A stretch of 64,000 nt of DNA. Origin: a virus (lineage: Duplodnaviria; Caudoviricetes). Shown piece by piece: positions 59,931 to 60,686 of the stretch. The DNA lies in IMG/VR virus record IMGVR_UViG_3300013121_000005, positions 224,001-288,000 of that record; one strand, 5' to 3'. Within the stretch, counting starts at the first letter, position 1; each line of letters begins with the position of its first letter. The notes beneath the pieces were generated by a model. The model did not search any database. It had not been told where the DNA came from and saw only the letters and a program-made list of their open reading frames with translations. Position numbers and translations under genes: made by a program.

Positions 59931-60686
59931 TTACAGGTCGAAGCGTGACTTTGATTTCATGGGTTCTGCGCAGGGCTCCCAGTGTTGAGCAAGCATTTCT
60001 GCGGTAACCTCTGTTCGTTCAGGTTCAGGTTGGCCACACCAGTGTTCGACAGCAACCTGATGGTTGGGAAGAAGGTAACGGATGTAAATCAGATTGTTGT
60101 TGGTCTTGTTACGTAGCCATGTGTTAGGGCGTAACCAGTCAGGCGGCGTGAAAGGAGCGGGGTTGGCGCCAAAAGTAATTTGCCGTGGAATTGTGCCGGG
60201 ATCGGGATCTCGGTCGTAGACGGGTAGGGCGCCTTCGTAGAAGGGTAGGGCTCCCTGAGGCAGCTCTTCGACGATGAACGTGCGGCGAACCACTGCTTGG
60301 TAGTCGATGCGAGGCCGGAGCGGGTTCGGCGGGACGATTCGTCGTCTCTCGGGGATCGTCGCGAGGTAGTTCTCCAAGATGCGGCGAGCCACCTCGGGGT
60401 CGATGCTATCCCCATTTTGGTTCGGTCGCGGGTTGACGGCTCGGCCCCAAGCTCCAAAGTCCGGGGTCACGTACACGTAGTGTCGGTAGACCTCTCTTAA
60501 CCGAAGAATCTCTTGGTTGTCCGGCTCGCCCTCAAACTCGATCCGGTAGACCCAATCCCGTTCGCGGCGTTCTTCAAGGACCGTTCGGACGTGATGAGGG
60601 TCTTCCCGAAGGCGAGCTACGGCAGCCCGCATGGTGATGCGGTCATCTAGGGTCGCGATAGGGAAGGAAAGCTGCCACTCAGGCAT
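59931..60686 (-). CDS. mosaic protein with capsid-N-arm-like segment and C-terminal SRFDL tag
   Basis: PLRPRIDYQAVVRRTFIVEELPQGALP..YDRDPD; ends KSRFDL. Confidence 0.65.
   Translation of the reverse strand: MPEWQLSFPIATLDDRITMRAAVARLREDPHHVRTVLEERRERDWVYRIEFEGEPDNQEILRLREVYRHYVYVTPDFGAWGRAVNPRPNQNGDSIDPEVARRILENYLATIPERRRIVPPNPLRPRIDYQAVVRRTFIVEELPQGALPFYEGALPVYDRDPDPGTIPRQITFGANPAPFTPPDWLRPNTWLRNKTNNNLIYIRYLLPNHQVAVEHWCGQPEPERTEVTAEMLAQHWEPCAEPMKSKSRFDL

Follow-up and report, generated by a model that had tools for sequence, protein, structure and literature searches.

Several described proteins are derived from the major capsid protein (MCP) and have acquired special roles, such as the T4 vertex protein gp24 and the PICI capsid protein Ccm. 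These are full-length MCP paralogues that keep the whole fold, join the shell and act in or on assembly and, to our knowledge, all capsid-derived genes known so far retain the entire HK97 fold. In a different class of systems, exemplified by encapsulin cargo-loading peptides and T4 capsid-targeting sequences, a short terminal peptide is attached to unrelated proteins and works with an HK97-fold shell; we know of no cargo that carries a piece of the shell protein itself. Capsid sensors of the CapRel type are activated, not inhibited, when they bind the capsid protein. The N-arm of HK97-fold proteins is the site gripped by the C-terminal helices of the scaffolding proteins of 80alpha (PMC5644958) and SPP1 (PMC6813328), and it makes inter-capsomer contacts once the scaffold has been released (PMC6813328).

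The window analysed here is a stretch of 64,000 nucleotides (G000:C1:224001-288000) from a 363,484 bp virus record (IMG/VR IMGVR_UViG_3300013121_000005, hereafter G000) with a CheckV completeness of 76%. It contains on the minus strand a 251-aa ORF, P0001 (59931-60686, stop codon included), that belongs to a conserved family of metagenomic jumbo phages and shares with its homologues the start MPxWxL. From the N-terminus, P0001 comprises a predicted beta-alpha-beta-beta-alpha domain of the ferredoxin/ACT-like type (residues 1-72; 60471-60686, minus strand), an MCP-derived module (residues 95-162; 60201-60404, minus), a predicted small beta-barrel with a helix, SH3/Tudor/DUF1653-like (residues 177-245; 59952-60158, minus), and the C-terminal tag SRFDL (59934-59948, minus), a short form of the clade-wide [ST]R[FY][DE]x[LIV]. 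The module, which includes the peptide singled out in the original prediction (residues 98-162), spans the N-arm helix, the PLRxRxDY motif, and a strand with the LPxGALPxYD[RK]DP motif that precedes the E-loop hairpin. This last motif, the most conserved one, carries in P0001 a 21-nt in-frame tandem duplication (GALPFYE/GALPVYD; 60213-60254, minus), with copies at 60234-60254 and 60213-60233 that are identical in 18 of 21 bases; the duplication is not found in any aligned homologue. The GC content of this patch is 0.636, compared to 0.527 for the whole window, so that the original description of a 251-aa ORF ending in SRFDL with a doubled GALPxY in a GC-rich patch was accurate.

The phage has its own HK97-type MCP gene (G000:C1:96778-97650, 290 aa), which scores above the PF05065 cut-off and whose product is 83% identical to the 291-aa MCP of LR745208.1, an uncultured 485-kb phage. 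Residues 95-162 of P0001 align with residues 2-64 of the phage's own MCP with 27 identities over 61 positions (44%) and a local alignment score of 129, compared to a mean of 33 (sd 4.9, maximum 64) for 1000 shuffles, and a search of the phage's own genome with P0001 retrieves the MCP at E 2e-9. When 50,697 phage records were searched with P0001 using tblastn, three places only were matched, all of them N-termini of capsid genes: one in LR745208.1 (E 4e-7), where the ORF under the match encodes the 291-aa protein, and one in each of two Bacillus phage G records (E 2e-3), in which gene 27 is annotated as the major head protein. Pairwise BLASTP of P0001 against the capsid proteins gave E-values of 4e-14 and 2e-10, and a profile built from nine family members (A1) matched the phage G Gp27 capsid (PDB 6WKK) at E 4.2e-22 over capsid residues 3-119; aligned to this structure, the module corresponds to the N-terminal helix and the segment that runs into the E-loop. 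The similarity is confined to the N-terminal region: the MCP sub-profile 1-68 finds the P0001 ORF at E 2.6e-16, the sub-profiles 76-140, 141-225 and 226-290 find nothing in this ORF, and PF05065 (Phage_capsid) does not match P0001 even at E 10. The N-domain also seemed to resemble MCP residues 86-153, but at 0.7 bits this similarity is not significant and we discarded it.

On these comparisons, residues 95-162 of P0001 are confirmed as a true homologue of the MCP N-terminal region. Both the capsid string and the RRFDLIER motif that the original prediction had quoted are real, being present in the MCP of LR745208.1 as well as in the phage's own MCP, and the local alignment to the latter, on which that prediction was to stand or fall, is significant. 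P0001 lacks the rest of the HK97 fold, namely the E-loop hairpin, the spine helix, the A-domain and the C-terminal P-domain strands, and accordingly is not a PF05065 protein in the sense of the whole fold but is related to this family through the N-terminal region. Compared to the MCP of the phage G type, P0001 keeps the invariant residues of the N-terminal ~64 positions; unlike this MCP, it adds two unrelated domains and a tag, and its gene is located far from the head module. Neither P0001 nor its homologues matched any Pfam or PHROGs family significantly.

An exhaustive phmmer search of 1.84 billion representative sequences yielded 98 matches at E <= 1e-3, about 60 of which are multi-domain relatives of 200-400 aa, the remainder being true MCPs or MCP fragments; at least ~60 clusters at 50% identity have the P0001 layout. 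The nearest relatives are P0003 (63% identity, 323 aa) and P0004 (42%, 331 aa). The common plan of the family consists of the MPxWxL ferredoxin/ACT-like N-domain, the MCP N-terminal module, a variable part (the SH3/Tudor-like barrel in the case of P0001) and the C-terminal tag, with the family motif [RW][FWY][DE]R[LI]L followed by acidic residues; all typical members terminate in the tag. P0001 is recovered by the family profiles (famN, 1.5e-23; famC, 1.9e-16) and belongs to the family as defined here (P0001, P0003-P0060 and others), with the tag in a shortened form. The portion of the MCP that is retained varies among the members, from only about residues 2-64 in P0001 to residues 9-138 in P0052 (locus L014), and P0006 retains the E-loop return strand and RRFDI. 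There are also stand-alone proteins of 163-166 aa that correspond to MCP residues 7-138, that is, the N-arm, E-loop and spine helix (L020:2938-3426 and L016:2941-3435; also in L019 and L021), and a complete MCP is encoded in addition to them, the 446-kb record G010 being one example. The genomes of the clade that carry the family are about 360-435 kb in size. In the literature library that we searched, which covers part of the published work, there was no description of proteins that embed a capsid N-terminal fragment; searches there for capsid mimics, capsid decoys, fragments of the MCP and targeting motifs at the C-terminus in jumbo phages likewise found no such proteins described. Judging from these sequence and literature searches, the family appears to be previously undescribed.

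Comparison of an alignment of 32 diverse MCPs (A3) with an alignment of 57 family members (A2) revealed 16 aligned positions at which the same residue is present in at least 80% of the sequences in both sets, including P122, R124, D128, Y129, R134, V139, L142, P143, G152, A153, L154, P155 and Y157. The columns that are invariant in the MCP are the best-conserved columns of the P0001 family. In the AlphaFold2 models of P0001 and of a typical family member, P0016, the capsid-like segment highlighted by the original prediction stays at low confidence along PLR...YDRDP, between two flanking domains that fold (>90). The N-domain is folded in both models (pLDDT 86-98 over the two; 93-98 in P0001), as is the C-terminal barrel (91-98 in P0001 and mostly 95-98 in P0016). 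The N-arm helices reach a pLDDT of about 80, with helix 97-109 of P0001 standing above the rest of the module (49-66), and the PLR...YDRDP stretch, the most conserved part of the protein, has values of 50-63 and no fixed place in either model. A most conserved stretch that is predicted not to fold by itself is as expected of a segment that becomes ordered on a partner. The flanking domains resemble only generic folds: a Foldseek search of the PDB had no match at E <= 1e-3, VIA-align indicated a ferredoxin/ACT-like fold for the N-domain (Z 6-6.7) and 3be3_B as the best match for the barrel (Z 6.7), and the ESM Atlas rows for the barrel are DUF4222 and DUF1653. Co-folding of the MCP (A3) with residues 86-251 of P0001 (A2) gave a score of 0.00 in a single job that carries no weight either way.

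We propose that P0001 is a candidate accessory protein that binds the capsid lattice or a partner of the N-arm, acting as an assembly modulator or attached to the capsid, and would give this reading a probability of roughly 0.4. A copy of the MCP N-terminal contact region, consisting of the N-arm helix, PLRxRxDY...LPxGALPxYDRDP and the first P-domain strand, would have been exapted as a candidate binding module and would be held flexible between two small globular domains, in a protein that closes with the clade tag. The conserved residues of the module would find their partners in trans: in the MCP, these partners lie in parts that are missing from P0001, and we infer that they come from another chain. 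Most likely, the module would dock onto the MCP or the capsid lattice, or else onto a normal binding partner of the MCP N-arm, and P0001 would then be a factor that associates with the capsid or modulates its assembly. Assembly as such does not require the family: LR745208.1, whose MCP is so similar to that of G000, has no member of it and builds its capsid nonetheless.

The comparison with the described N-arm binders and capsid-protein derivatives reveals shared features as well as clear differences. Like the 80alpha scaffolding protein SP, CpmB of SaPI1 and gp11 of SPP1, P0001 is a small protein that involves the N-arm region and a short C-terminal helix motif (PMC5644958, PMC6813328), in the case of P0001 as read from its sequence. 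However, those proteins bind the N-arm, whereas P0001 contains a copy of it and has no sequence relationship to them. Phage scaffolding proteins are mostly helical or coiled-coil proteins with an MCP-binding helix at the C-terminus and are encoded next to the MCP, in contrast to P0001, which is predicted to have two domains, one alpha/beta and one beta, with no coiled coil, and is encoded 187 kb away. P0001 shares derivation from the capsid protein with gp24 and Ccm but keeps only about a fifth of the MCP, as a module.

An alternative is that the MCP stretch was recruited for a task without connection to the capsid, for instance as a generic oligomerisation element or a linker, or that P0001 is decaying in this particular genome. 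P0001 is indeed an atypical member of its family, with a degenerate N-arm GR turn, seven residues inserted in the core motif, a tag shorter than that of every other tagged ORF, and a C-terminus shorter than those of P0003 and P0004, and tblastn of the region downstream of its stop codon detected no remnant of the C-terminal extension that these two relatives possess; both flanking domains have common folds that offer no functional clue. Nevertheless, the reading frame is intact, the start is conserved among the homologues, and dN/dS between P0001 and P0003 is well below 1 in all three parts (module ~0.11, N-domain ~0.18, C-domain ~0.19, overall ~0.18), rough values given that the synonymous sites are near saturation. 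By these estimates, the P0001 gene is under purifying selection and does not appear to be a relic. Furthermore, the residues that are kept are precisely those that are invariant in the MCP, a pattern that would be surprising if the same contacts were not made. Re-use or decay of this kind thus seems unlikely to us, and the proposal of a capsid-derived segment within a non-capsid protein is borne out in the form of a conserved family that is subject to purifying selection and retains the MCP-invariant residues.

The genomic context of P0001 differs from that of a typical head gene. The head module of G000, with the portal (86260-88050), protease (92958-94664) and MCP (96778-97650) genes, is 187 kb away, and P0001 is surrounded by small unannotated genes, three AAA ATPases (one of them with an intein), a GH5 glycosidase and an RNA-repair-type HAD protein. 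In the relatives from loci L007, L009, L010 and L091, the family gene adjoins homologues of two unannotated window genes that encode proteins of 267 aa (57521-58324, minus) and 203 aa (56913-57524, minus). In two relatives, AcrVA2-like genes are present within about 5 kb of the family gene. The setting of P0001 is one of accessory genes and includes no head operon; it is at least as compatible with an island of accessory or counter-defence genes as with a head gene. A scan for sigma-70 promoters and terminators that might indicate the expression class of P0001 gave nothing above chance. The sequence TGGTGTA is located 97 nt before the first gene (61051-62115) of the putative P0001 operon, in the region of 62212.

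Several additional features of this neighbourhood are worth recording. TGGTGTA(A/G) is up to 12-fold enriched in G000 in the 80 nt upstream of ORF starts, with 25 occurrences no more than 120 nt ahead of an ORF start, frequently at a distance of 15-18 nt, and may be a promoter or leader element. The gene at the head of the putative P0001 operon (61051-62115, minus) encodes a 354-aa protein with four tandem PEEPQKPL copies and no family match. The intein-containing ATPase is an AAA+ gene (62238-63998, minus) that runs past the end of the window and whose interrupting intein contains a LAGLIDADG homing endonuclease; the other two AAA ATPases, of 400 aa each, are encoded at 41092-42294 and 53664-54866. 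In the GH5 protein (44534-46180, minus; 548 aa), a long coiled coil follows the domain of the cellulase family as a C-terminal fusion. In G001, the homologue of the 267-aa protein is fused behind an N-terminal part that contains the internal tag-like sequence PTTRFSRV. The C-terminal barrel of the family recurs in other proteins of related genomes (G001:C1:335642-337183, minus; G003 ORFs 27569-28324, 32494-33012 and 55465-56412), in one of them as several tandem copies, and therefore behaves as a mobile module.

Other fragments of the MCP have been captured by accessory proteins of related genomes. A 258-aa paralogue in G001 (locus L091, G001:C1:338500-344800, ORF 1313-2089, minus) combines the family N-domain (profile E 7e-10) with MCP residues 246-288 followed by MCP residues 76-115; its C-terminus is ...RRFDLIDRSGPT, so that it finishes exactly in the MCP-homologous ...RRFDLIDR. 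This arrangement is in effect a permuted P-domain without the A-domain. Among 5.8 billion proteins, the 258-aa type has one partial relative and, being nearly unique in the database, is a sporadic variant and not the usual partner of the family; a split P-domain heterodimer was ruled out as a general mechanism on the same count. In small ORFs of G002 and G003, the C-terminal hairpin of the MCP, PVRTELTVL..ADDPK, is combined with unrelated sequence (L092 ORF 592-1140 in G003, L094 ORF 738-1199 in G002, and G003:C1:289727-290218). The fragments in G001, G002 and G003 are pieces of the N-arm or the P-domain, and none comes from the A-domain. No complementary 'other half' of the MCP turned up in G000 when all six frames were searched with the sub-profiles, and phmmer with the fragment proteins of G001, G002 and G003 retrieved only the real MCP.

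These observations bear on the possibility that P0001 is a decoy or sponge, in which the module would display an MCP epitope and occupy a factor that recognises the N-terminal region of the MCP, either a host defence protein that senses capsids or, from a satellite or a competing phage, a scaffold-like or capsid-redirecting protein, sparing the real MCP. The MCP of this clade is so conserved (85-97% identity over >100 clusters) that it presents a fixed target, from which escape by mutation would be hard; the capture of different MCP pieces in separate accessory proteins looks as if several epitopes matter; the neighbourhoods are accessory and non-structural, with the AcrVA2-like genes in two relatives; and both scaffold and size-redirecting proteins bind the N-arm helix (PMC5644958). 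However, the phage is uncultured, with no known sensor or satellite, a simple duplicate of the epitope would set off CapRel-like capsid sensors instead of inhibiting them, and the Pfam and PHROGs searches yielded no match to anti-defence families. Since no defence sensor is known for this phage and CapRel-type sensors are activated by the capsid, a simple decoy is less likely than a capsid-binding or assembly role, and we regard it as improbable.

The C-terminal tag extends beyond this protein family. Using the motif [RK][FYW][DES][RLKH][LIVM] and defining tails as the last 20 residues of ORFs, we found 15 tagged ORF tails in G000 compared to 16-18 matches across all ORF bodies, a ~10-fold enrichment per residue. 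The tag, in the form [ST]R[FY][DES]x[LIV], is present on about 15 unrelated ORFs between 209 and 336 kb of G000; examples in the window are 4564-5064 (minus), 12183-12887 (plus), 25698-26051 (minus), 26042-26635 (plus), 40141-40809 (minus) and 53329-53694 (plus). Pfam recognizes almost nothing in the tagged proteins, with the exception of one Top1-type zinc ribbon. As in the classes of encapsulin cargo-loading peptides and T4 capsid-targeting sequences, a short terminal peptide is common to unrelated proteins, but the motif of the clade tag is a different one and its binding to the shell is only putative. The resemblance of the tag to RRFDLIER that the original prediction pointed out gains from the G001 paralogue ending in ...RRFDLIDR; nevertheless, the likeness extends over 4-5 residues only.

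Across six genomes, the family and the tag enrichment occur together in three and are both missing in the other three. The family is present in G000 (MCP 100%), G001 (MCP 96% identical to that of G000) and G003 (94%), which have 15, 12 and 13 tail tags and enrichments of ~10-, ~9- and ~11-fold over the body rate, respectively; it is absent from LR745208.1 (83%), G006 (41%) and G009 (36%), which have 0, 1 and 1 tail tags and no enrichment. A scan for other MCP-fragment ORFs was positive for G001 and G003 and found none in G000 and LR745208.1. The tag-positive and tag-negative genomes split along the phylogeny, and thus the co-occurrence fits a single clade-specific system, although six phylogenetically split genomes are too few to prove a functional link.

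This pattern raises the possibility that the family is the receptor or adaptor of a tag system: the tag would bind a pocket of the MCP N-arm and P-domain, in the manner of encapsulin cargo peptides and scaffold C-termini, and the family would be a soluble, itself tagged copy of the pocket, by which tagged proteins would be retained, ordered or regulated ahead of head loading or in its course. The joint presence of the family and the tags, the extra MCP-fragment ORFs that accompany them, the tag at the end of all typical members and the link between tag and MCP motif in the G001 paralogue are in line with this, but common descent may account for the co-occurrence in so few and phylogenetically separated genomes, the tag helix of P0016 is not docked on the module with any confidence in the AlphaFold2 model, and the short likeness to RRFDLIER speaks against it as well, so that we consider such a receptor very unlikely. 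It is just as doubtful that, more broadly, the clade has turned pieces of its own MCP into a portable interaction system in which the fragments and the RRFDLIER-related tag select what is loaded into the head or held back; under such a scheme, the two together would reproduce contacts of the capsid type, either away from the capsid or on its inner face.

What is new here is that only the contact-making N-terminal fifth of a capsid protein is kept, apparently under selection, inside another protein. If, as proposed for the capsid-binding accessory role, the module docks on the lattice or on N-arm binders, the family would provide a handle on the assembly, loading and regulation of very large heads. 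The defined peptide of about 35 residues (PLRxRxDY...YDRDP) is usable for binding studies. Should the docking prove true, it would also offer a handle on the job of the clade-wide tag and on whether phages turn fragments of their own virion components into mimics directed at host sensors or at molecular pirates.
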